Source: a virus
Taxonomy: Duplodnaviria; Heunggongvirae; Uroviricota; Caudoviricetes
Length of the DNA: 45,266 nt
Reading direction: 5' to 3' (one strand)
Virus record (IMG/VR): IMGVR_UViG_2718217897_000001
Location: 1 to 45,266 of that record
This document shows positions 1-45,227 of the stretch, one piece after another. A program made the translations under genes and the position numbers. The notes under the pieces were generated by a model. That model was not told the DNA's origin. It worked only from the letters and a program-made list of their open reading frames with translations, and made no database searches. The number at the start of each line of letters is the position of its first letter. Position 1 is the first letter of the stretch.

Positions 1-897
1 TCATTTTAATACCTCTTTGTTTACTGGGGTTAATATCTGAGATGGTAGTTCTGAAAGATTCTCTTGTTCAAGTATATGTTGAAAGCTTTTATTCATCATT
101 ATGATGTTAAAAATCTCATTTACTATTAGTAGGTTGGTTTTTATGAATTTTGAGTTGTTATAAACAGATTTATGTTCAGCGATACTATTTTCATAAAGCT
201 CAATCAACTCCTCTGCAGTCATCCTTTTTGATGGTTTGTGATAATAAAATCCGGCTGCTTTTGCACCTTTATTTCCAACTGTTCTTTGATTTAGAATGTG
301 TTTTATCTTTATAATGTCCCGACTTTTTATTAATTTTTTATCATATGCTTCGGTAAGAATATCTTGTGCTTCCTCAGTTTCACATCTTGCAAATTGCACT
401 GCGAGATACAGAGGCAAATTACCCCGTTCGACTGCTGAGAGAAGTTTATGCTCTCCCTTATCAAGTAGCATATTAATACTGCTCACCCAGTTCGATGAAT
501 ATCCAGTAATCTCACTTATTTCGGAGTCTGAAAGTCCTCTGATTTTCATGTCTTTAATCACCTGTAATAACTCATTAGAACGTGGTCTTCTCCTTGCAAT
601 GTTTTCAACTAAACTCATAACGTAAGCATCTTCTTCTGATACATCTCTTATAATTGCTGGAATAATAGTTTCACCTAATGCAACGAGAGCCTCTATTCTC
701 CCTTGACCACAAATTAAAGCATATTTGAAATCGCCTTCATCAATAGCTCTTACGCTTATAGGCTTGCTTAATCCTCTTTTTTTTATGCTTTCCTTTATTT
801 CTTCATGCACTACCTTATTTCTTGTTCGTGGGTTAAGAAATTTTATTTTTGCAATCTCAATTTGAATTATTGGGAATTCATTTTTTTCAGGCAGCAT
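1..897 (-). CDS. ParB-like protein (ParB/Srx N-terminal domain followed by HTH)
   Basis: Complete 298-aa ORF with stop at 1-3. Contains a GxxRxxA-type ParB box (ICGQGRIEAL) and a downstream HTH-like segment. Overlaps the upstream recombinase gene by 11 nt, so likely co-transcribed. AT-rich by eye. Confidence 0.55.
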   Translation of the reverse strand: MLPEKNEFPIIQIEIAKIKFLNPRTRNKVVHEEIKESIKKRGLSKPISVRAIDEGDFKYALICGQGRIEALVALGETIIPAIIRDVSEEDAYVMSLVENIARRRPRSNELLQVIKDMKIRGLSDSEISEITGYSSNWVSSINMLLDKGEHKLLSAVERGNLPLYLAVQFARCETEEAQDILTEAYDKKLIKSRDIIKIKHILNQRTVGNKGAKAAGFYYHKPSKRMTAEELIELYENSIAEHKSVYNNSKFIKTNLLIVNEIFNIIMMNKSFQHILEQENLSELPSQILTPVNKEVLK

Positions 898-2443
898 ATA
901 GTTCCCTCACTTTCATGCGAGTAATAATTTGTAGAAGTTTATCAAGATTATCAAATCTATAGAGATCTAATCGAATGTTGTTTGTTTCCGTCATGCACAT
1001 TTTATTATATTCGTTTTCAATCTTTGGTATGATATAAAAATCAAGAGGTGAAATATTTTGTGAATTCATTCGTATAACAATTGTTATGTCTGCTTTCTGT
1101 GAGTTATCAAACCGGACTTTCCATCTAAGTTTACCTGATTTCATATGTATGCATTTAGTAACAAGGACGGAAATTAAAAACTCATCATTGATGTAAAGCA
1201 TTGGGGCATATTTATACTCGTCTATATGACAGTTGCTTTTTAAAATTTCACCCTTAAAATCCTCAATTATCTCTGAGTAAAATGATCTTAGTGCTTCATT
1301 TATTTTGAGATAGCTGTAATCATGTTCTGGCTTATAACCAATCAAAGTATATGCTCTTAAAAGACCACCAAATCGGGTTCTATAAACAGAAGATGAAGGG
1401 CCTGTATCATCTTCATCAATGATAAAGCCTGATAGTTTTCCATTAGATTCTAATTTTTGTTTTAGTTTTTCTAATAGATCTTCATTAGTCAAATGAATGG
1501 ATCGGAGCTGAATTATTTCTTGAGCTTTATTGTATTTTTTCTTTGAAATAATAGGTTTATATGCCTTGTCACATCTAACCCATTCATGTTTGGGGTTTTT
1601 TACAAGCCTACTTTTTAATTTAGATGAGGTTTTGTTATATATGTTGTTTCCAATATATTTTTCATTTGTCAAAATTTGATGTATTTTTGCACGAGTCCAT
1701 AATGTACCATTTTCTGCAGGTATGTTCTGTTCATTTAATCTCTCAGCAATAATGAATTCTGGGACGTTATTATCTATAAAGAGATCATATATTCTATTTA
1801 CAATTTTTATTTCATTTTTTGGTCCCGGAATTAATATTACCCTATCTGTTTGAATACTCTTTCTTTTGCGGAAACTCAATATTTCTTTAGCTATGCCATT
1901 TTCGTCTACTAAAAGACGTCTCAGCCCATAACCAGCCATACCGCCTTGATGATAACCAAGCTTTATTAAATTTACTTGCCCTATAAATACCTTTTCAGAT
2001 AGATTCCTGCTGTGATATGCAGCACTAGATCTTTTTATATTCAGTATAACAGAGGACTCTAAAGGGAAATCTTTAGTGGGTATAGGTTCGGAACAATATA
2101 TAAGATCTACACCATTTCTCTCAAATAGAAAGGAATAATATGCCGCTTCATCACTATTTTGAAAACGACCAAAACGGCTCACATCATAAAATAATACAGC
2201 CTGTATATCTATTTTCTTTTGTTCTACATCGCTAAGTAACTGCTGCAAAGAATGCCTGCCTACGATACTGACTCCGCTCTTACCTGAATCATCGTAGGTA
2301 TAAGCGATTTCCATATTGTTCTTTTCAGCATAATCTTTGATATATTCGGACTGATTATGTAAAGAATATTGCTGATGGTCGGTAGACATCCTCAAGTACT
2401 GCGCGACCCTAACTCTATGATTTTTGTCATTTTCGCTAGCCAT
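887..2443 (-). CDS. large serine recombinase (resolvase-type catalytic domain plus recombinase domain)
   Basis: 518-aa ORF. N-terminus has the resolvase signature (YLRMSTDHQ with catalytic Ser, later DVSRFGR). Long C-terminal extension typical of large serine recombinases. AT-rich codon usage. Confidence 0.7.
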   Translation of the reverse strand: MASENDKNHRVRVAQYLRMSTDHQQYSLHNQSEYIKDYAEKNNMEIAYTYDDSGKSGVSIVGRHSLQQLLSDVEQKKIDIQAVLFYDVSRFGRFQNSDEAAYYSFLFERNGVDLIYCSEPIPTKDFPLESSVILNIKRSSAAYHSRNLSEKVFIGQVNLIKLGYHQGGMAGYGLRRLLVDENGIAKEILSFRKRKSIQTDRVILIPGPKNEIKIVNRIYDLFIDNNVPEFIIAERLNEQNIPAENGTLWTRAKIHQILTNEKYIGNNIYNKTSSKLKSRLVKNPKHEWVRCDKAYKPIISKKKYNKAQEIIQLRSIHLTNEDLLEKLKQKLESNGKLSGFIIDEDDTGPSSSVYRTRFGGLLRAYTLIGYKPEHDYSYLKINEALRSFYSEIIEDFKGEILKSNCHIDEYKYAPMLYINDEFLISVLVTKCIHMKSGKLRWKVRFDNSQKADITIVIRMNSQNISPLDFYIIPKIENEYNKMCMTETNNIRLDLYRFDNLDKLLQIITRMKVRELYAA

Positions 2444-2725
2444 GCACGAAACCTCATGGATGATTCAATACAATGTAGTGGATAAAATTGATCAAATTTT
2501 AACCGAATTCAACTGTTTTATCATTGATTAGAGCGAATTTGGTAGATCTTCGAGGTGTATGATAATCGAGAAGAGATGTGAATTATTTAGCTGATATGAC
2601 CGACAGCTTTCGTTATGTGGACTCAATGTCCCCATTTGTAAATGGCTATGCTTAGTCCACATAGGTTAATGGTGTGATTATTAATTCTTTAACTAAATCA
2701 AGATAGTTAATCCATCATGGGAGAG

Positions 2726-3955
2726 TTATGCGGCAATAACTTTGCATTTTTGAGACGAAACATAGTCACTCCACCATTGCATGAGAACCACCCGTTCAGT
2801 GAGATACTCTGCACGATTGTAGGCTGCAATTATTTCATCTTTCTTCGAGTGGGCAAGGGCGGCTTCTAAGACATCAGTCCTAAACTTGCCAGACTCCTCA
2901 GCAGCCGTTCTAGCAATGGATCGCATACCGTGAGCTACAAGCTCACCTCCGAAACCCATACGGATTATGGCCGCATTAGCTGTTTGTTCATGCATGTGAT
3001 TGAGTGGAGCTTTGATACTGGGGAACACCCACTCTCTATGCCCGCTGATGACTTTCATTAAATCCAAAACTCGCAAAGCTTCTTTGCTCAGTGGAACTTT
3101 GTGAGGCTTCTTCATTTTCATAAACTCCGCCGGGATGTTCCACATGCCAGTTTCAATATCAATATCTGACCATCTTGTGCGAACAGCTTCACCTGGGCGA
3201 ACCCATGTGAGAAGTTGCCACTCAATCAGTAGCCTTGTTTCCAAACGGATAGAAGCATTGTTTAGAGCAACCAAGAAGCGAGGGAGTTCGGAAGGGGGTA
3301 ATGCTGGCATATTCTGTTTTTTTGGCTTGCTGAACCGTTGCCCCAGGTTGTCTGCCGGGTTGAATTCTATGAGTTCTTCTGTTGCTGCATAGCGGAAAAT
3401 TTCATTCAGGCGGGATATGATGCGGCGAAGTGTTTCAAGGACACCTCGTTTTTCTATGGGTTCTAAATGCTGTTTAAGCATTTTAGGGCGAATCTCCTTA
3501 ATTGGGGTATCACCCAATGTGGAAAAGATATTTCTCTCTAGGCTTCGCCAGATGTCGTTAGCATGATCTTGGGAGATGCCTGACGTTTTGACTTTCTCAT
3601 CAAGCCACTTCTTGGCTACTGCTTGAAATGTATGTTCCGTGGCATCTTTCAGTGCATTGGCTTTTTGGTTGTTATGAACTTGGGGGTCTATACCATTTGT
3701 AAGCAACGACAAGTATTCATCACGTAAAGCTCGTGCCTTCGCAAGTGTAAGGTGAGGATAGGTTCCTAAGCTCACCTTAGTTCGCTTTTTGGTCACAGGC
3801 ACTGCATATCTGAAATACCAATTTTTCTTCCCTCCCTTCGCCAGGGGAGCGATTCGCAACAGCAAACCATCGCCGTCAAAAAGGTTAACCTCTTTTTCGG
3901 CAGGTTTGGTGCTTTTGATTTCAGTGTCAGTGAGCTTCTTAGCGATTTTGGCCAT
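2726..3955 (-). CDS. intA: tyrosine integrase, P4/IntA (CP4-57) family
   Basis: Translation from MAKIAKKLTDTEIK resembles the N-terminus of E. coli IntA/SlpA, with C-terminal HGxRS and AYNR motifs. The ORF track extends to 4036, but the ATG at 3955 is the likelier start. Lies ~165 bp downstream of a displaced ssrA 3'-end copy, as intA does relative to ssrA in K-12. Confidence 0.8.
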   Translation of the reverse strand: MAKIAKKLTDTEIKSTKPAEKEVNLFDGDGLLLRIAPLAKGGKKNWYFRYAVPVTKKRTKVSLGTYPHLTLAKARALRDEYLSLLTNGIDPQVHNNQKANALKDATEHTFQAVAKKWLDEKVKTSGISQDHANDIWRSLERNIFSTLGDTPIKEIRPKMLKQHLEPIEKRGVLETLRRIISRLNEIFRYAATEELIEFNPADNLGQRFSKPKKQNMPALPPSELPRFLVALNNASIRLETRLLIEWQLLTWVRPGEAVRTRWSDIDIETGMWNIPAEFMKMKKPHKVPLSKEALRVLDLMKVISGHREWVFPSIKAPLNHMHEQTANAAIIRMGFGGELVAHGMRSIARTAAEESGKFRTDVLEAALAHSKKDEIIAAYNRAEYLTERVVLMQWWSDYVSSQKCKVIAA

Positions 3956-4052
3956 GTTTGGGACCCTCGATTTTAGGACCCATCTTCGTGGGTCCCATTC
4001 AGGGTGCCATAACTCGTAGTTCTCAGCAATTCTCACTAGACTACAATAGACG

Positions 4053-4086
4053 TAAAAAAGCCCGCAGAGCTTGTGCTGTGCGGGCT
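4053..4086 (-). terminator. rho-independent terminator downstream of the displaced ssrA 3' fragment
   Basis: Stem agcccgca / tgcgggct with an A-run on the plus strand, which is a U-run for a minus-strand transcript. Confidence 0.5.
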
Positions 4087-4121
4087 TAGTAGACTTTACT
4101 GAACTTCAGTACATCAATATT

Positions 4122-4157
4122 TGGTGGAGCTGGCGGGAGTTGAACCCGTGTCTGAAA
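4122..4157 (-). repeat. displaced ssrA 3'-end copy; prophage attachment-site repeat (attR)
   Basis: tggtggagctggcgggagttgaacccgTgtcTgaaa matches the ssrA 3' end at 44865-44900 with 2 mismatches over ~36 nt. Confidence 0.85.
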
Positions 4158-4186
4158 AATATTAACCTGTTGTTTTAATTATATAT

Positions 4187-4966
4187 TTATCTGAACATGG
4201 CGTTTGCGGCGCTTTTGCGTATCTTCTCTAGACCTTTTGTAGTCCATTTCTCTGGTACAGGTGTAAACCGTAGTGCAAAATCTGCCTCCATATTATCACC
4301 ACTGAAACGTGCCACTCCACGTTCCAATTTTGTTTGCCAAGTGACTTTTTTAGTTTTACCCTCTATATCTTGATATTCAATAATTAATTTTGGACCAGTG
4401 AATGATGAAGAACCGACTAATTTAAGTCTATGTGAAAGATATGCTATATTCAATAGAATATCAATTGCCGCGGTTGGTACAAAAATGTTTTTTGACTTCT
4501 TATCTATACTATATGGTAACGAAAAATCAATATCGTAAGGTGTCGATAAAGTATTGTACATATATACTTTTCTTTCTTTTATTATTTTGAACATTCCATA
4601 CTGGGAGTCGGTTGTAAAAGATTTATCTTCTTTTTTGAATTTTTTCGAAAACAACTCTAAATATAGATTTATGTTTTTTTTATAATTAAAATCCCAATGA
4701 TATCTAAGTGAAATTGCCGCCCCCAATCCTATGTTTGAAAATTTTGTTTGTGGAAGCGTAGGGGCTTGTAAGATATCAACATGAAAACCGTTGAAATCGT
4801 TAACATTCATCTTGATATTTAAAGTGTCTATCACTAAATTGGGTTTATAAGAGAGCCTTCTTTGAAATATCGTTAACCATATTGCATATAATGCAGCAAT
4901 TGCTGAAATGAAAGTACCAACTGAAGATATGTAGGTGATTAGTTTGTCGAATGTAATTGTAATCAA
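4187..4966 (-). CDS. hypothetical membrane-anchored protein (cargo between attR and int)
   Basis: 259-aa ORF with a TTG start and a plausible GGGGA Shine-Dalgarno. One N-terminal hydrophobic helix (ISSVGTFISAIAALYAIWLTIF). Strongly AT-rich versus neighbours. No family recognised. Confidence 0.55.
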   Translation of the reverse strand: MITITFDKLITYISSVGTFISAIAALYAIWLTIFQRRLSYKPNLVIDTLNIKMNVNDFNGFHVDILQAPTLPQTKFSNIGLGAAISLRYHWDFNYKKNINLYLELFSKKFKKEDKSFTTDSQYGMFKIIKERKVYMYNTLSTPYDIDFSLPYSIDKKSKNIFVPTAAIDILLNIAYLSHRLKLVGSSSFTGPKLIIEYQDIEGKTKKVTWQTKLERGVARFSGDNMEADFALRFTPVPEKWTTKGLEKIRKSAANAMFR

Positions 4967-5007
4967 CTTTAAATCCCCGATTTTAAAAATGCGGGGATTA
5001 TTAAATA

Positions 5008-6180
5008 TTAATTATGATTATGCAAATGATTTATCGATGTAAAGTTATCATACTCTTTAAGATACGAACCATAGTGCCTGAAAAGCATCTCCGGCCCTTT
5101 ATGCCCCATTTGAGCTGCAAGCCAAAACAGGTTTGCTCCTCGGCTGATATGGCTGGTGGCGAATGTATGCCTGGTTTGATATGGGTTTCTGTAACGAATA
5201 CCTGCTTTTCGCAATGTTGGCACCCATGCTTTTTTCCTAATTGCATCAGCACTTGCCCAAGGCTTATTGGTCTTTGGATCTTCAAAGACAGTAGCATCCT
5301 TCATGAATGTAAATGGCTTCTGATTTATCAGCGCCAACATTGCCTCTTCTGTCAGTTCAACTTTCCGAGTACCTGCTTTTGTCTTTGTCCCTTTGATAAC
5401 ACCGACAACACTTGCGCTCTGGACATGGGCAGTTTTTCCAACAAAGTCGATATCACGCCATCGAAGGGCACATAATTCAGAACTACGCAGGCCTGTATGT
5501 ATAGCGAACCGGAACAGATTTTCCCATTGTTTGTTTCCGGCTGCTGCTAGTAATGCATCAACTTCTGCTGGTGATAGCGGATCAACTACGTAGCTGCTTT
5601 CTGCTTCTGACTTATCACTTTGGTAGCGCGAAGCTGTTACTAACGATACGGGGTTAATTTGAAGTACCCCATCGGTCACGGCTTCATCAAGTGCTGACCG
5701 CAGGAAAGATAACTGGTTGCGAATGGTTTTTAAGGTCGTTTTCTGGCTTTGAATCCACGCTTTCAGGGTTGCTGGTGTTAATTCACTTGCAGGGCAAATG
5801 TGAAGTGAGGCTAACGCACTACGGCATTTTTTATAACCACCGATCGTGGATGGTGAAAGTTTCCTCGTTTCGCAGATTTCAAGGTATTCGTCCAGGTACA
5901 TTTTTACCGTTTTGCCTGCAGCAGCATTACCAAAAATTTTCAAACGAGCAGAACGGGGAAAATATTCCGCATAAATGAATGTTCCCCTTTCGATCTTATT
6001 ATGAATTTCGCCGAGTGTGCGCTCAGCGTATTTAATGTTCTTTGGTGTTACTTCCAGATTGGAAAGAGGCTCACGACATTTAACTCCTTTGTAGGTGAAA
6101 GTTATATTGATCGTTTCGCCCTGGCGGTGTTTCCTGATTGTTACGCCGCGCGGTAGTTTGAGCAGTTTTGTCTGGCCCAT
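5008..6180 (-). CDS. int: phage tyrosine integrase
   Basis: 390 aa. C-terminal catalytic region has R...HxxR...Y-type motifs (YQTRHTFAT, GHKGPEMLFRHYGSY). Adjacent to attR and an excisionase gene. Confidence 0.85.
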   Translation of the reverse strand: MGQTKLLKLPRGVTIRKHRQGETINITFTYKGVKCREPLSNLEVTPKNIKYAERTLGEIHNKIERGTFIYAEYFPRSARLKIFGNAAAGKTVKMYLDEYLEICETRKLSPSTIGGYKKCRSALASLHICPASELTPATLKAWIQSQKTTLKTIRNQLSFLRSALDEAVTDGVLQINPVSLVTASRYQSDKSEAESSYVVDPLSPAEVDALLAAAGNKQWENLFRFAIHTGLRSSELCALRWRDIDFVGKTAHVQSASVVGVIKGTKTKAGTRKVELTEEAMLALINQKPFTFMKDATVFEDPKTNKPWASADAIRKKAWVPTLRKAGIRYRNPYQTRHTFATSHISRGANLFWLAAQMGHKGPEMLFRHYGSYLKEYDNFTSINHLHNHN

Positions 6181-6359
6181 TTTGCAACCTCACTAAGATC
6201 AATCCACCTCTCCTTAACGCCTTCAACCTTTAAAACCTGAACACCTTCACGCCAAACACCGCGCTGTACACGTTTGTTTATTGCTTCAGGAGTTTCGCCA
6301 GTTTCTTTGCAATAAGTTGAGATTGGAACACAATCGAGGTTCAGCATATGTTTCTCCAC
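6141..6359 (-). CDS. xis: excisionase-like DNA-binding protein
   Basis: 72-aa ORF immediately upstream of and overlapping int. Small basic winged-helix-like sequence. Confidence 0.5.
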   Translation of the reverse strand: MEKHMLNLDCVPISTYCKETGETPEAINKRVQRGVWREGVQVLKVEGVKERWIDLSEVAKWARQNCSNYRAA

Positions 6360-6406
6360 TTAGCCCGCTGCACACGGGCAGTAATATCAAATTCCAGTCC
6401 TGATAA

Positions 6407-6622
6407 TTAATTTTGTTCCCTGGTTGCTACCTGTTTTATTGGCCTGATGCTGTCCAGTAGCAGACGGCGACGCATGTTAGGTGCACCCCAACGGTAACCA
6501 GTCTTTTTGTCGTAGGATTCACAACGTCCGGCAACCCAGGACGTTTCAGTGGAATGTAATTTCATCCGCTTTTCACCGTCTCGGGTGATAACAATTCCTG
6601 TATGAGTTTTTATCACGCTCAT
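6407..6622 (-). CDS. hypothetical early protein
   Basis: 71-aa ORF, translationally coupled to the upstream gene (ATGA overlap at 6619-6622). Confidence 0.4.
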   Translation of the reverse strand: MSVIKTHTGIVITRDGEKRMKLHSTETSWVAGRCESYDKKTGYRWGAPNMRRRLLLDSIRPIKQVATREQN

Positions 6623-6981
6623 TTCTTAGTCTCCGGTGCTTTCGGTATTACTGCCCAGTGAGTGATATTGACGTTTTCAAGGTCCCCGACTTGAAATGTC
6701 CACTGCCATTCTCCGGTTTCTTTTTGCCCCCATGTGTACCAGAGAGAACGCCAGCCAATCAGCCAGCCTTCTCCGTTAGCATCAAATAACAGAACACTTT
6801 CATTTGCTGGCGGCAGTTCAGCTGACACTGGTATTACTTTGTTTTCCAGTGCTGCACATTTAGCTTCAAGCGCATCAAATTTACGCACCAGGTATTCAGC
6901 ATCCGTTTCATTCACTTTCAGATCTCGCGGTACACATTTCCCGCGCAGAAACCCTTCCATTTCGAAAACATTCATGCGCAT
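6619..6981 (-). CDS. hypothetical early protein (YfdS-like size and position)
   Basis: 120-aa ORF in the early-left operon. Confidence 0.45.
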   Translation of the reverse strand: MRMNVFEMEGFLRGKCVPRDLKVNETDAEYLVRKFDALEAKCAALENKVIPVSAELPPANESVLLFDANGEGWLIGWRSLWYTWGQKETGEWQWTFQVGDLENVNITHWAVIPKAPETKK

Positions 6982-16439: not shown

Positions 16440-16802
16440 TTGTGGAGAAAGTTGATGCGTGATATGTATGAAGTGATGGATCGTTGGGGAGCTTGGGCTG
16501 CTTCAGACAATAGCGGAGTGGACTGGCAACCGGTAGCCGCTGGCTTCAAGGGGCTTTTACCTCATGGCAAAAAGTCCCGGATTCAGTGTGATGATGATGA
16601 GGGGCTCATGATCGATGGGTGCGTAGCTAGATTAAGAAAGTACAAACCAGAAGAGTATGAGTTAGTTATAGCCCATTTTGTGGTAGGGATTTCATTGCGA
16701 GCCATTGCTAAGAAGAGAAAGTGTTCGGATGGGACTATCAGGAAAGAGTTGCAAACATCGCTTGGTTTCATTGAAGGCATTGTTTGCACTCTTGCCTGTT
16801 AA
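16440..16802 (+). CDS. Q: late-gene antiterminator Q (QuuD-like)
   Basis: RWGAWAA, AAGFKGL, QCDDDE, GCVARL, CSDGTIRK motifs shared with E. coli QuuD. Start possibly at 16455. Confidence 0.8.
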   Translation: MWRKLMRDMYEVMDRWGAWAASDNSGVDWQPVAAGFKGLLPHGKKSRIQCDDDEGLMIDGCVARLRKYKPEEYELVIAHFVVGISLRAIAKKRKCSDGTIRKELQTSLGFIEGIVCTLAC

Positions 16803-16823
16803 CTATTCTTAACTGTCTTCTAG

Positions 16824-17708
16824 TTATATTGGGCGCTTTGAATTCGATTTAAAGCGTCTTCCACTTATTCCAGAAACCCAAATGTCTTCCTCAAGAAAGT
16901 CAAGAAGGGCTTTTATTTCTTTTTTTGATGAAGGCATGACAATTTTCTCAACACCGCCAACTATTATGGTTTGTAAGGGGAAATTAACTTTAGCAGCTTC
17001 GGATTTAAACTTTGACATATTTTGGGGTGTTAGCATCCCAGTCTGATTTATTAGTGTTACTTTATTTCTTATCACTGTATCTGCAACGGATTTTAGATCA
17101 AAACCTTGGGGAGTAGAAAATACACTAAGTTGACTAAATGCATTAAGTTCTTGGTCAGTAGCAGCAGAAAAATAGGACGACATGTCAAAAATGCTTCTTA
17201 GATTAAAGAAACTCTTAAATCGTATTGTATCATTGATAATTATTGCAACTAGTTTATCATCAACATTAAAACCGATGCTATTAGCTTTACTAAAGGTAGT
17301 TTTGCTTGCAAAAAGCTTTCCAAAGAATGATTTTGAGGTATCTAAGATTTGTTTTTTGTTGAAAGTTTGTAGTGCAATAATATTGGGGTTTGCTGGCGCG
17401 TCAACACCAACAAATAATGCTTTAATATAACCAATATCAATTTGGCTAGGATCCCAGATAGGCACGGCGGTAGGCCTATTGACTGCGTCAATCAGGCGTG
17501 CAGAATCAGTAAAGTTTTGTATTTCAAAACACTCACTATGTTTTGGTGTATAACCGGCATAGAATGGTATCATATTGTTATGATGACTTTCAAAATATTG
17601 ACGCTGTTGTTGGAAAATGGCCGTAACAGAAGTACTTGCTGTTGCATCAAGTTCGACTCTAACAATTCTCGTTGCAATTGTATTATCTATTACTGCAAAA
17701 AGTGCCAT
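16824..17708 (-). CDS. hypothetical 294-aa protein, second gene of the opposite-strand cargo operon
   Basis: Starts 5 bp after the stop of the upstream membrane-protein gene, with an AAAGGA Shine-Dalgarno. AT-rich. No family recognised. Confidence 0.6.
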   Translation of the reverse strand: MALFAVIDNTIATRIVRVELDATASTSVTAIFQQQRQYFESHHNNMIPFYAGYTPKHSECFEIQNFTDSARLIDAVNRPTAVPIWDPSQIDIGYIKALFVGVDAPANPNIIALQTFNKKQILDTSKSFFGKLFASKTTFSKANSIGFNVDDKLVAIIINDTIRFKSFFNLRSIFDMSSYFSAATDQELNAFSQLSVFSTPQGFDLKSVADTVIRNKVTLINQTGMLTPQNMSKFKSEAAKVNFPLQTIIVGGVEKIVMPSSKKEIKALLDFLEEDIWVSGISGRRFKSNSKRPI

Positions 17709-17713
17709 GGTTA

Positions 17714-18235
17714 TTATCCTTTAACATGTAGAAATGTGTAGTCTGTTAATTGAATAACTGTAAATTTGATATCTTTAATATCAGTAATAACTGATTTAGA
17801 AATCAATACAAAACCTACGCCGGTGTCATCTTCAGCTTCGTAAAATTTATAACCGATAAGTGACAATACTGGGTTAAAGTTATAGTTCTCGGAAAAGCTG
17901 ATGTAAAATAACAATGATAAATAAAAGAATAACGCATATGCTTTATTTTCAGCAATAGAATCTGTTCCTAGGAGAGGGAATAAATAGCTTAAGAAATAAT
18001 TAGTTACTTCTTTGTTAGCGGGAGAAACTGAACTAATATTTTTTGTCAGAGGTTCAAGTTGTTTCTCAGCATATTGAATCAGGCCTATTGCTAATAACCA
18101 ACTTGCTATGCCAACGCATAAGCTATATTGCATCAGCCAAACCGTATCTTTTACATATCCAATAAAAAATAGAGTTGCGCAAACAGGTGCAATTGAGCTG
18201 GCTGTTAATAATAAGCGTGCTAATTTGTTCATCAT
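17714..18235 (-). CDS. hypothetical multi-pass membrane protein (3-4 predicted TM helices), first gene of the cargo operon
   Basis: 173 aa. Hydrophobic segments at about residues 8-28, 35-55, 78-92 and 99-115. ATG at 18235 with an AAAGGA Shine-Dalgarno. AT-rich. Confidence 0.6.
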   Translation of the reverse strand: MMNKLARLLLTASSIAPVCATLFFIGYVKDTVWLMQYSLCVGIASWLLAIGLIQYAEKQLEPLTKNISSVSPANKEVTNYFLSYLFPLLGTDSIAENKAYALFFYLSLLFYISFSENYNFNPVLSLIGYKFYEAEDDTGVGFVLISKSVITDIKDIKFTVIQLTDYTFLHVKG

Positions 18236-18392
18236 GATATCCTTTGTACTGTTTATGCATACAGCACTTTACATCATGTACTCCAAAGTATCTATCTTGT
18301 GAAGAATCTTACACTAAATACTACAGAAAAAGTTAACGCGTACGCAAAAAGTATTATATCGTGTTAAGAGTGGTTACTTTGCCACACAGCTT

Positions 18393-18418
18393 AAACCCGC
18401 CGTCGAGCGGGTTTTGTC
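18393..18418 (+). terminator. tR'-like terminator after the late promoter (Q antitermination target)
   Basis: aacccgc ... gcgggtt stem followed by a T-run, between Q and the holin gene. Confidence 0.5.
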
Positions 18419-18566
18419 ATTTCTGGGCCTTGGTATTCGTTGGGCTTGGTCTATCTAGTACTTATCCATTGGCTCGGCTTCTTTTACGTTTCCGCTTCTG
18501 GTTTGCGGTTCGTGGTACTCCCTCAATTTGCACCTCCTGTATCGGCGAGGTGAGAGATAACTACAA

Positions 18567-18893
18567 ATGCCTCATAACCCAAATACCTGGCTGGAGTTGG
18601 TCCAGAGCTGGTGGCGTGGAGACACACCACTGGGCGCAGTGATTATGTCGATCGTTATGGCTGGCTTGCGCATTGCCTATTTTGGCGGTGGTGGTGGCTG
18701 GAAGCGAAAAACACTCGAAATTCTACTCTGTGGCGCTCTGACGCTGACTTTTGCATCCGCTCTTGAGTATGTCGGATGGCCTAAATCGCTTTCTGTTGCC
18801 ATTGGTGGTGGGGTGGGGCTGATCGGTGTCGATGCTATTCGTGGGGCTGCAATGAGAGTAATCGGTAATAAGTTTGGTGGCTCTAAGGAGTAA
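18567..18893 (+). CDS. S: holin (lambda S-like)
   Basis: 108 aa, hydrophobic helices and a charged C-terminus. Immediately upstream of the endolysin. Confidence 0.7.
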   Translation: MPHNPNTWLELVQSWWRGDTPLGAVIMSIVMAGLRIAYFGGGGGWKRKTLEILLCGALTLTFASALEYVGWPKSLSVAIGGGVGLIGVDAIRGAAMRVIGNKFGGSKE

Positions 18894-19749: not shown

Positions 19750-19882
19750 TACACCTGTACCGTTTATACCCAACCCACTGACGTATGGTGCAAGTCTTGA
19801 TTTGAATGTAAGTTTGTTATCCGCGTTGGCTCAATGTAATAGGGATAAGTCAGATATCAGAATCATTGATAATCAAAATTGA
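19634..19882 (+). CDS. Rz1: o-spanin lipoprotein (Rz1), +1 frame, overlapping and extending beyond Rz
   Basis: Lipobox LLTGC after ATG at 19634. Pro-rich mature region. Confidence 0.55.
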   Translation: MMIVLYALCLLPLLTGCGSTRTVYVSIPKTPLPVSLTSDTPVPFIPNPLTYGASLDLNVSLLSALAQCNRDKSDIRIIDNQN

Positions 19883-20086
19883 TGTATATTTTTATCGTCA
19901 TGTAGATAACGAACAAGGTATTCCTCTGATACGTATTCGTTGAATACAGGTCATGGGTAGGCATTGCAATATCGCTTCGAAATTATCTGTGATAATGCTC
20001 TTAATTTTGAATGTATGTATTTGGGAAAAGAGATAAAGTAATAGTCTAATTAATGGAGATATCCACAAAACACAAAAGGGATTATT

Positions 20087-20593
20087 ATGAGACCAGATCA
20101 ATTTTTCTATCCAGATACTTTTACCTTTAATTCATCCACCTATTATGGTCAACGTGACTCATCTAAAGGCCGATTGTATATTCCTATTGAAAGTGACTTA
20201 TGCCCATTTAATATCGGCGATATCATTGTGCAAAAAATGGTCGACAGGGAAAGGCTATTTGAAGTGCTTGATTACGAGGTGCAAATTAGTCTCGAGGTTG
20301 GTTGCCCTGGCTACTCACATTTGGCGGTATTGATAGTGAAGGCATTGGATGTAAAAGAGAAGCCGAAGCAGATTACGACCCATTTGACGTTTAACGGTGC
20401 TATTAATGCTGGTGGTGATTTTCAAGCCGGTAATGATAATTCGATCACAAAGAATATAACCATTCAACAACTACATGATGCTATAGAGCATTGCAATGAT
20501 CCAGAGGTTAAAAGCCTTTGGCAAAAGCTATTGGAAAATCCGACGTTTGCTTCAATTGCTTCAATATTGGCAAAAAGTGCTTTAGGACAGTAA
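20087..20593 (+). CDS. hypothetical protein (self-contained cargo gene)
   Basis: 168-aa ORF after a ~200-bp AT-rich spacer, with its own Shine-Dalgarno, followed by a hairpin terminator. Confidence 0.5.
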   Translation: MRPDQFFYPDTFTFNSSTYYGQRDSSKGRLYIPIESDLCPFNIGDIIVQKMVDRERLFEVLDYEVQISLEVGCPGYSHLAVLIVKALDVKEKPKQITTHLTFNGAINAGGDFQAGNDNSITKNITIQQLHDAIEHCNDPEVKSLWQKLLENPTFASIASILAKSALGQ

Positions 20594-20600
20594 TTCATCA

Positions 20601-20626
20601 AGCCCCATTCAATATGGGGTTTTTAT
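20601..20626 (+). terminator. rho-independent terminator
   Basis: ccccat tcaat atgggg stem-loop followed by TTTTT. Confidence 0.6.
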
Positions 20627-20650
20627 GCTTATTACAAAGAGTTTTCTTCA

Positions 20651-44864: not shown

Positions 44865-44900
44865 TGGTGGAGCTGGCGGGAGTTGAACCCGCGTCCGAAA
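44865..44900 (-). repeat. attachment-site repeat within the ssrA 3' end (attL)
   Basis: Matches 4122-4157. Confidence 0.85.
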
Positions 44901-45227
44901 TTCCTACATCCTCGGTACTACATGCTTAGTCAGTCTTTATATTCGCTTGCCAGCTGCGGACGGACACGCCACTAACAAACTAGCCTGATTAAGTTTTAAC
45001 GCTTCAACCCCAGGCAGGGCTTCCACGCGATCTCTTTTGGGTTTGACCTCTCTTGATCCCCGTCCTAAGAGCGGAGGCTAGGGAGAGAGGGCTCTAAGCA
45101 GGTTATTAAGCTGCTAAAGCGTAGTTTTCGTCGTTTGCGACTATTTTTTGCGGCTTTTTACGAGGCCAACCGCCCCTCGGCATGCACCTTGGGTTTCGCA
45201 AATCCCGTCGAATCCAGAATCAGCCCC
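44865..45227 (-). ncRNA. ssrA: tmRNA (SsrA), intact, 363 nt
   Basis: Reverse complement begins GGGGCTGATTCTGGATTCGACGGG and ends CCCGCCAGCTCCACCA. Encodes the ANDENYALAA tag region (gcaaacgacgaaaactacgctttagcagcttaa). Confidence 0.97.

Follow-up and report, generated by a model that had tools for sequence, protein, structure and literature searches.

The window analysed here, a stretch of 45,266 nucleotides, carries a discrete, AT-rich cassette between the antiterminator Q gene and the lysis genes of a prophage, and within it lie two genes of the minus strand that we refer to as kwaA and kwaB. The features of the locus are as follows, in coordinates of the window.

16440..16802, plus strand: antiterminator Q (PF06530, 1.5e-45; RefSeq 'antiterminator Q family protein', with the start at 16455), forming the left flank and convergent with kwaB
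16803..18335, no strand assigned: swappable cassette of cargo, reaching from the Q stop codon up to where the conserved late-region block begins, delimited by junction alignments and the GC profile
16824..17708, minus strand: kwaB, a soluble protein of 294 aa, with an alpha/beta domain at its N-terminus and DUF4868 at its C-terminus, presumably the effector that binds DNA
17714..18235, minus strand: kwaA, 173 aa from the first ATG, a protein that crosses the inner membrane four times and has a beta-strand domain on the cytoplasmic side
17717..17722, minus strand: Shine-Dalgarno-like AAAGGA of kwaB, within the final kwaA codons, read from the sequence
18240..18245, minus strand: Shine-Dalgarno-like AAAGGA of kwaA, read from the sequence
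18236..18335, minus strand: cargo-specific region of ~100 bp upstream of kwaA, the presumed site of the operon promoter
18336..18566, plus strand: conserved block upstream of the holin, unchanged across six loci with different cargo
18393-18414, plus strand: terminator (hairpin and T-run) inside the conserved block, from the terminator scan
18567..18893, plus strand: holin (PF05106, 5.7e-25; RefSeq 'phage holin, lambda family'), the first lysis gene and right flank

An earlier, sequence-only reading of this DNA had proposed two tightly spaced genes on the strand opposite to the late genes, each with its own AAAGGA Shine-Dalgarno motif. Both open reading frames were recovered at the coordinates listed above, on the minus strand and with a 5-bp spacer, and the motifs are found at 17722-17717 before kwaB and at 18245-18240 before kwaA. 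On the minus strand, kwaA ends in GTT AAA GGA TAA, the stop codon occupying 17716-17714, followed by the spacer TAACC and the kwaB ATG (17708), which stands 8 nt from its AAAGGA. The AAAGGA of kwaA precedes a first ATG (18235) by 4 nt and a second (18232) by 7 nt; as nearly all KwaA homologues start with MNK..., the second is the likelier start, yielding a protein of 172 aa. kwaA is thus directly followed by kwaB in the same orientation, which is the gene order of Kiwa. The AT-richness noticed in that reading is also real: the operon has a GC content of 34.1%, with a GC3 of 0.25-0.26 in its two genes, whereas the window as a whole stands at 48.8% and the neighbouring Q, DUF968 and holin genes at 46-55%. 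Upstream of kwaA, a scan for consensus promoters found none and a looser, home-made scan gave only sigma-70-like matches at chance level; downstream of kwaB, the terminator scan yielded no terminator. We infer that kwaAB is expressed in the lysogen from a promoter within the ~100-bp cargo-specific region.

What do the two genes encode? The sequence-only reading had considered a KwaA/KwaB architecture, as in Kiwa, and had proposed to examine it with Pfam DUF4868 and PADLOC models and with Foldseek; the profile searches and the fold comparison all point to Kiwa. KwaA matches PADLOC model PDLC00216 over residues 1-172 of 173 (1.9e-83), along with 11 more KwaA models, and KwaB matches PDLC00225 from end to end (2.3e-150). 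KwaB further matches Pfam PF16162 (KwaB, formerly DUF4868) over residues 108-281 with 32.0 bits, the gathering score of this family being 26.3, and homologues of KwaA bear the Pfam domain PF28043 KwaA. Against the NCBIfam KwaA equivalog NF041622, our KwaA reaches 46 bits (E 5e-12), below the curated cutoff of 100; judging from this score, it is a relative of a narrow equivalog group yet lies outside it, which bears on the sub-clade and not on the family. In PHROGs, both proteins are present as families of unknown function. Sequence searches of the PDB with each protein, and profile searches built on 41 sequences, returned no Kiwa chain, and the link of the pair to solved Kiwa chains came only through comparison of folds.

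In the AlphaFold2 model of KwaA (pLDDT 78), four transmembrane helices (2-28, 32-59, 76-96, 98-114), where the earlier reading had expected three to four, are combined with C-terminal strands, the strands of the model covering residues 62-72, 130-136, 141-146, 157-162 and 167-170. Model and Foldseek comparison together recover the KwaA architecture of four transmembrane helices and a cytoplasmic beta-barrel built from ICL1 and the C-terminus. The sole Foldseek matches are solved KwaA chains, 9mrx_A, 9mrg and 9mrr, with an E-value of 4e-6 and TM-scores of 0.63-0.69. KwaB, rightly described as soluble-looking, is a cytoplasmic protein devoid of hydrophobic segments and has the two-domain fold of the solved structures; its monomer model contains a low-confidence loop at 122-144 that may, by resemblance only, recall the published flexible DE loop contacting KwaA. 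The predicted periplasmic loops of KwaA measure only ~4 and ~9 residues (residues 28-31 and 89-97), and in a few distant relatives (Avibacterium, metagenomic) the first KwaA loop has an insertion of ~18 residues. With loops this short, the model suggests that details of sensing may differ from those of solved Kiwa. The earlier reading had left the choice between a divergent Kiwa and an undescribed pair. The former holds, with an identity of 10-18% to the solved proteins; the latter, a membrane-associated anti-phage or superinfection-exclusion pair new to science, is ruled out by the HMM and fold evidence.

Could a Kiwa fold have been put to a different use? The pair might have another trigger or outcome, such as a block of DNA entry (superinfection exclusion) or an abortive response through a KwaA channel, instead of replication arrest by KwaB. 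Several features would suit such a departure: the low identity to characterised proteins, a KwaA of 172 in place of ~195 aa with minimal predicted periplasmic loops, the equivalog cutoff that is not reached, and a phage specificity that already varies among the tested Kiwa systems (PMC11785009). However, both folds and domains are kept over essentially their full length, the two-gene architecture and its tight spacing are conserved, and HMM searches of the kwaA and kwaB sequences give no hint of an extra domain with an enzymatic or pore-forming role, so that we regard a different mode of action as quite improbable.

Each protein has ~90 homologues, spread across the Enterobacterales with a few outside. 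Of the differences between two E. coli alleles, 10 are synonymous and 2 non-synonymous; for kwaB, omega lies at 0.09-0.2 with the alleles that allow its computation (those of KSC1031, Cronobacter and Dickeya), dS being saturated towards Proteus, and for kwaA, pN is 0.10-0.22 with pS saturated. As judged from these substitution patterns, the operon is under purifying selection, and the number of homologues together with the predominance of synonymous differences argues that the open reading frames are not products of chance. Adjacency and order of kwaA and kwaB are kept in Cronobacter, Proteus and Dickeya, with a spacing of +4, -11 and +1 bp, respectively, and an overall range of -11 to +5 bp among homologues. 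Identities of KwaA and KwaB are 84/67% in Cronobacter, 73/53% in Proteus and 67/50% in Dickeya, the membrane component being always better conserved than the effector. It is the same body of evidence that speaks to whether the operon is a silent or decaying passenger, unexpressed in the lysogen and currently functionless. Such a state could account for its rarity (33 of 5426 genomes) and for a promoter and terminator of which we found no convincing example, but with both frames intact in each allele examined, substitutions mostly synonymous, and Shine-Dalgarno sites and tight spacing kept across genera, we consider it hardly credible.

The position of the operon is equally informative. It had been placed between the antiterminator Q and the late promoter and lysis cassette, and the Pfam matches of the flanking genes agree; in the RefSeq annotation, the holin is followed by a GH104 endolysin and by genes of the Rz/Rz1 type. 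In alignments of the junctions across the window, Shigella phage SfII and four E. coli prophages with a DUF968-Q left flank and a holin right flank, similarity ends at the Q stop (16802) and returns sharply at 18336 (ACGCGTACGCAAAAA...), from where it is unbroken up to the holin ATG. The edges of the cassette are accordingly sharp, at 16802/16803 and ~18335/18336, and the stretch 18236..18335 shows no similarity to the five relatives with other cargo. The conserved right flank is common to 487 E. coli genomes. The same conserved block is found in an Stx2a phage, where 15 bp separate it from Q and tRNAs and stx2AB follow it, and in the cryptic prophage DLP12 just before essD. As it follows Q and precedes stx2 in the one and essD in the other, and contains a hairpin with a T-run, we read it as the probable late promoter/qut/tR' region.

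With its own base composition (34% GC against ~50%), conserved flanks and other cargo in relatives, the cassette has the makings of a moron, and the sequence-only reading had called its position the classic one of stx and nmpC. This is right for nmpC and wrong for stx, which lies on the sense strand downstream of the late-promoter block and is known to be under the control of pR', downstream of Q. In DLP12 of E. coli K-12, nmpC shares the slot and the antisense orientation, flanked by quuD, the homologue of Q, and by the block preceding essD; unlike the present pair, nmpC stands alone, has an IS5 insertion in K-12, and encodes an outer-membrane porin and not a defence system. That a porin gene can occupy this very slot, and that iss lies in a nearby slot of a relative, might be taken to suggest that our cassette is also a lysogenic-conversion moron with an envelope or virulence function, like nmpC or bor/iss. 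Yet both proteins match Kiwa specifically and nothing else, with no match to a porin, an adhesin or another characterised non-defence function, and KwaB is cytoplasmic and lacks any hydrophobic segment. A non-defence role is therefore very improbable in our estimate.

The earlier reading had also advised looking for different inserts at the Q-lysis junction of related prophages. Besides nmpC, six other cargo sets were found in the slot, and every occupant found is encoded on the minus strand. Coordinates are those of the extracted loci.

Shigella phage SfII, 1345-2959, minus strand: PDC-M53A/B, a PADLOC candidate system
E. coli 3036, 2554-3931, minus strand: a ThsB-like TIR protein and a caspase-family protein
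ECOR29, 1464-3864, minus strand: an MBL-fold hydrolase and two hypothetical genes
WCHEC005784, 2113-3840, minus strand: a TIGR04255-family protein and two hypothetical genes
23CRST030, 2759-3754, minus strand: a lone SDH-family Clp-fold serine protease
mEp460, 2015-2941, minus strand: a 308-aa hypothetical gene
DLP12, minus strand: nmpC

The cassettes of SfII and E. coli 3036 resemble ours in being two-gene antisense cassettes bounded by the same Q and late-region block; they differ in that the proteins they encode belong to families with no relation to KwaA or KwaB, and PDC-M53 is a candidate system. The presence of such defence-type cargo (PDC-M53, ThsB-like TIR with caspase) in the same slot of relatives counts in favour of a defence function of the kwaAB cassette. 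PADLOC 2023 recognised no system in the cargo of WCHEC005784, ECOR29, 23CRST030 and mEp460; by their position, these uncharacterised genes are candidate defence genes. For the MBL set of ECOR29, the PADLOC matches are weak and concern only a DRT-associated MBL and LmuA. The Q/pR' junction of this prophage family can thus be seen as a swappable antisense cargo slot, with its uncharacterised occupants as reasonable candidates for new defence genes. In the literature, of which our coverage is incomplete, we found no prior description of this Q-holin defence hotspot, and we see a mild interest in the recurring antisense Q/pR' placement of the clade in unrelated prophages and in the uncharacterised cassettes that occupy the slot in relatives.

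Three further observations concern other parts of the window. A second AT-rich island (33-41% GC) at 19750-20650, between Rz/Rz1 and the HNH/terminase genes, looks like a second moron slot; it contains an open reading frame (20087-20593, plus strand) whose 168-aa product is matched by neither Pfam nor PADLOC, and relatives have iss/bor-type or other small genes at this position. Beyond the tail genes lies a complete tmRNA gene, ssrA (44865-45227, minus strand; Rfam RF00023, 296.6 bits), suggesting that ssrA is the integration site of the prophage and of the elements next to it. Positions 1-5000 of the window, which precede the prophage integrase, comprise according to RefSeq two genes of the ParB/RepB/Spo0J family, a large gene of a recombinase family, a second gene with an integrase domain and a hypothetical gene, and may represent an integrative element of its own that lies in tandem with the prophage.

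How widely does the operon travel? The antisense position between a Q-type gene and lysis genes recurs in prophages of Cronobacter (identity of KwaB 67%) and of Proteus mirabilis (52%), whose lysis and packaging modules are otherwise different. In Dickeya (KwaB 50%), one genome has two copies of kwaA-kwaB, each adjoining the same DDE_3 transposase gene in different surroundings, one copy by a T4SS coupling protein in an ICE-like context, the other by BrxC-like and helicase genes, which suggests that the module was moved by a transposon. The transposase precedes each copy at equal distance, the region concerned being 4125-6870 in either extracted locus. Megablast against genomes of isolated phages gave matches to the flanks only; with tblastn, distant KwaB genes came up in two phages, a temperate one of Klebsiella (47.5%) and a Pseudomonas Pf phage (33%, already annotated as KwaB), and a search of plasmids gave one match, at 27%. 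Among complete E. coli genomes, the operon occurs at at least 99% identity in 33 of 5426, in every case on the chromosome. None of the 31 named strains among these 33 carriers is one of the strains with experimentally tested Kiwa (O55:H7, ECOR8, ECOR12, ECOR49, D9, Ralstonia).

What, then, does the operon do? Very probably, it is a Kiwa kwaA-kwaB operon by which the prophage defends its lysogen against other phages, probably lowering conjugation as well, with a mechanism that we propose by homology. In the Kiwa systems studied to date, KwaA tetramers bind KwaB dimers to form a fence-like membrane supercomplex, which localises to phage attachment sites and answers perturbation of the membrane; KwaB binds single- and double-stranded DNA through DUF4868 and stalls phage replication and thereby late transcription (PMC11785009; review PMC13434031). 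The defence needs both genes and is non-abortive, the cells surviving, and it is inhibited by lambda Gam, which binds KwaB and for which RecBCD competes (PMC11785009; PMC13434031). By analogy, the present KwaA would tetramerise in the inner membrane, where KwaB dimers would dock on its cytoplasmic beta-barrel; KwaA would sense the membrane perturbation at phage entry, and KwaB would bind the incoming DNA via DUF4868, stalling replication and preventing late transcription without killing the cell. Our confidence that the published scheme applies here is high for its general outline and lower for its details, given that the clade is just 10-18% identical to the solved proteins, with a shorter KwaA and short periplasmic loops. 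On the same grounds of homology, we would expect the present pair to assemble into oligomers, to bind DNA, to have a phage specificity and to be sensitive to Gam. As it appears to be entry through the membrane that activates the system, induction of the resident prophage should leave its own Kiwa untriggered; among its early-left genes, no Pfam match to a Gam-like inhibitor was found.

One elaboration of the Kiwa reading that we consider unlikely, though worth stating, is that the Enterobacterales clade is a functionally distinct variant. As its KwaA has almost no periplasmic exposure, it might sense by bilayer deformation only, and the antisense placement between Q and pR', repeated in unrelated prophages of E. 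coli, Cronobacter and Proteus, might act as an off-switch coupled to induction. If so, early-right transcription reading through Q would silence kwaAB at lytic growth and so spare the replication of the resident prophage.

How does the pair relate to the systems already known? The closest characterised system is the Kiwa of E. coli O55:H7 RM12579 and of ECOR strains (Doron 2018; Zhang, Todeschini et al. 2025), and we know of no experiment on the present Kiwa clade. The solved systems of these strains (PDB 9mrx, 9mrg, 9mrr, 9mtn, 9nyu, 9o0i) have in common with ours the two-gene kwaA-kwaB operon, the plan of KwaA with four transmembrane helices and cytoplasmic beta-strands, and that of KwaB with an alpha/beta and a DUF4868 domain, and the PDB contains no other significant structural match to either protein. 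They differ in sequence, with an identity to the present proteins of just 18% for KwaA and 10-12% for KwaB, and they are longer, KwaA having ~195 aa as compared with 172 here (~23 residues) and KwaB 315 as compared with 294. Being natural and compact, the present cassette of ~1.5 kb is useful for testing the generality of the published mechanism in a clade distant from the structurally studied Kiwa.

Much closer counterparts exist in the databases. Over the 38,450 bases that were compared, the window shows 100% identity to the chromosome of E. coli H1827/12 (NZ_CP013031.1), in which RefSeq labels the 294-aa gene 'Kiwa anti-phage protein KwaB-like domain-containing protein'; the 173-aa gene of the same allele is a 'KwaA family protein' in newer RefSeq records. 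About half of all Kiwa loci reside on mobile elements, including ~198 dereplicated prophages (PMC11785009). With prophage-borne Kiwa thus documented, and with PADLOC and RefSeq covering the exact clade and locus, our finding is already known: on the evidence of these models and records, clade and locus are catalogued Kiwa, which PADLOC would call as such, and not a new discovery. The RefSeq proteins WP_001163087.1 and WP_031617482.1 are the products of the identical locus and hence the same entity as the present pair, and from the PADLOC clade of PDLC00216/PDLC00225 the pair differs in nothing.
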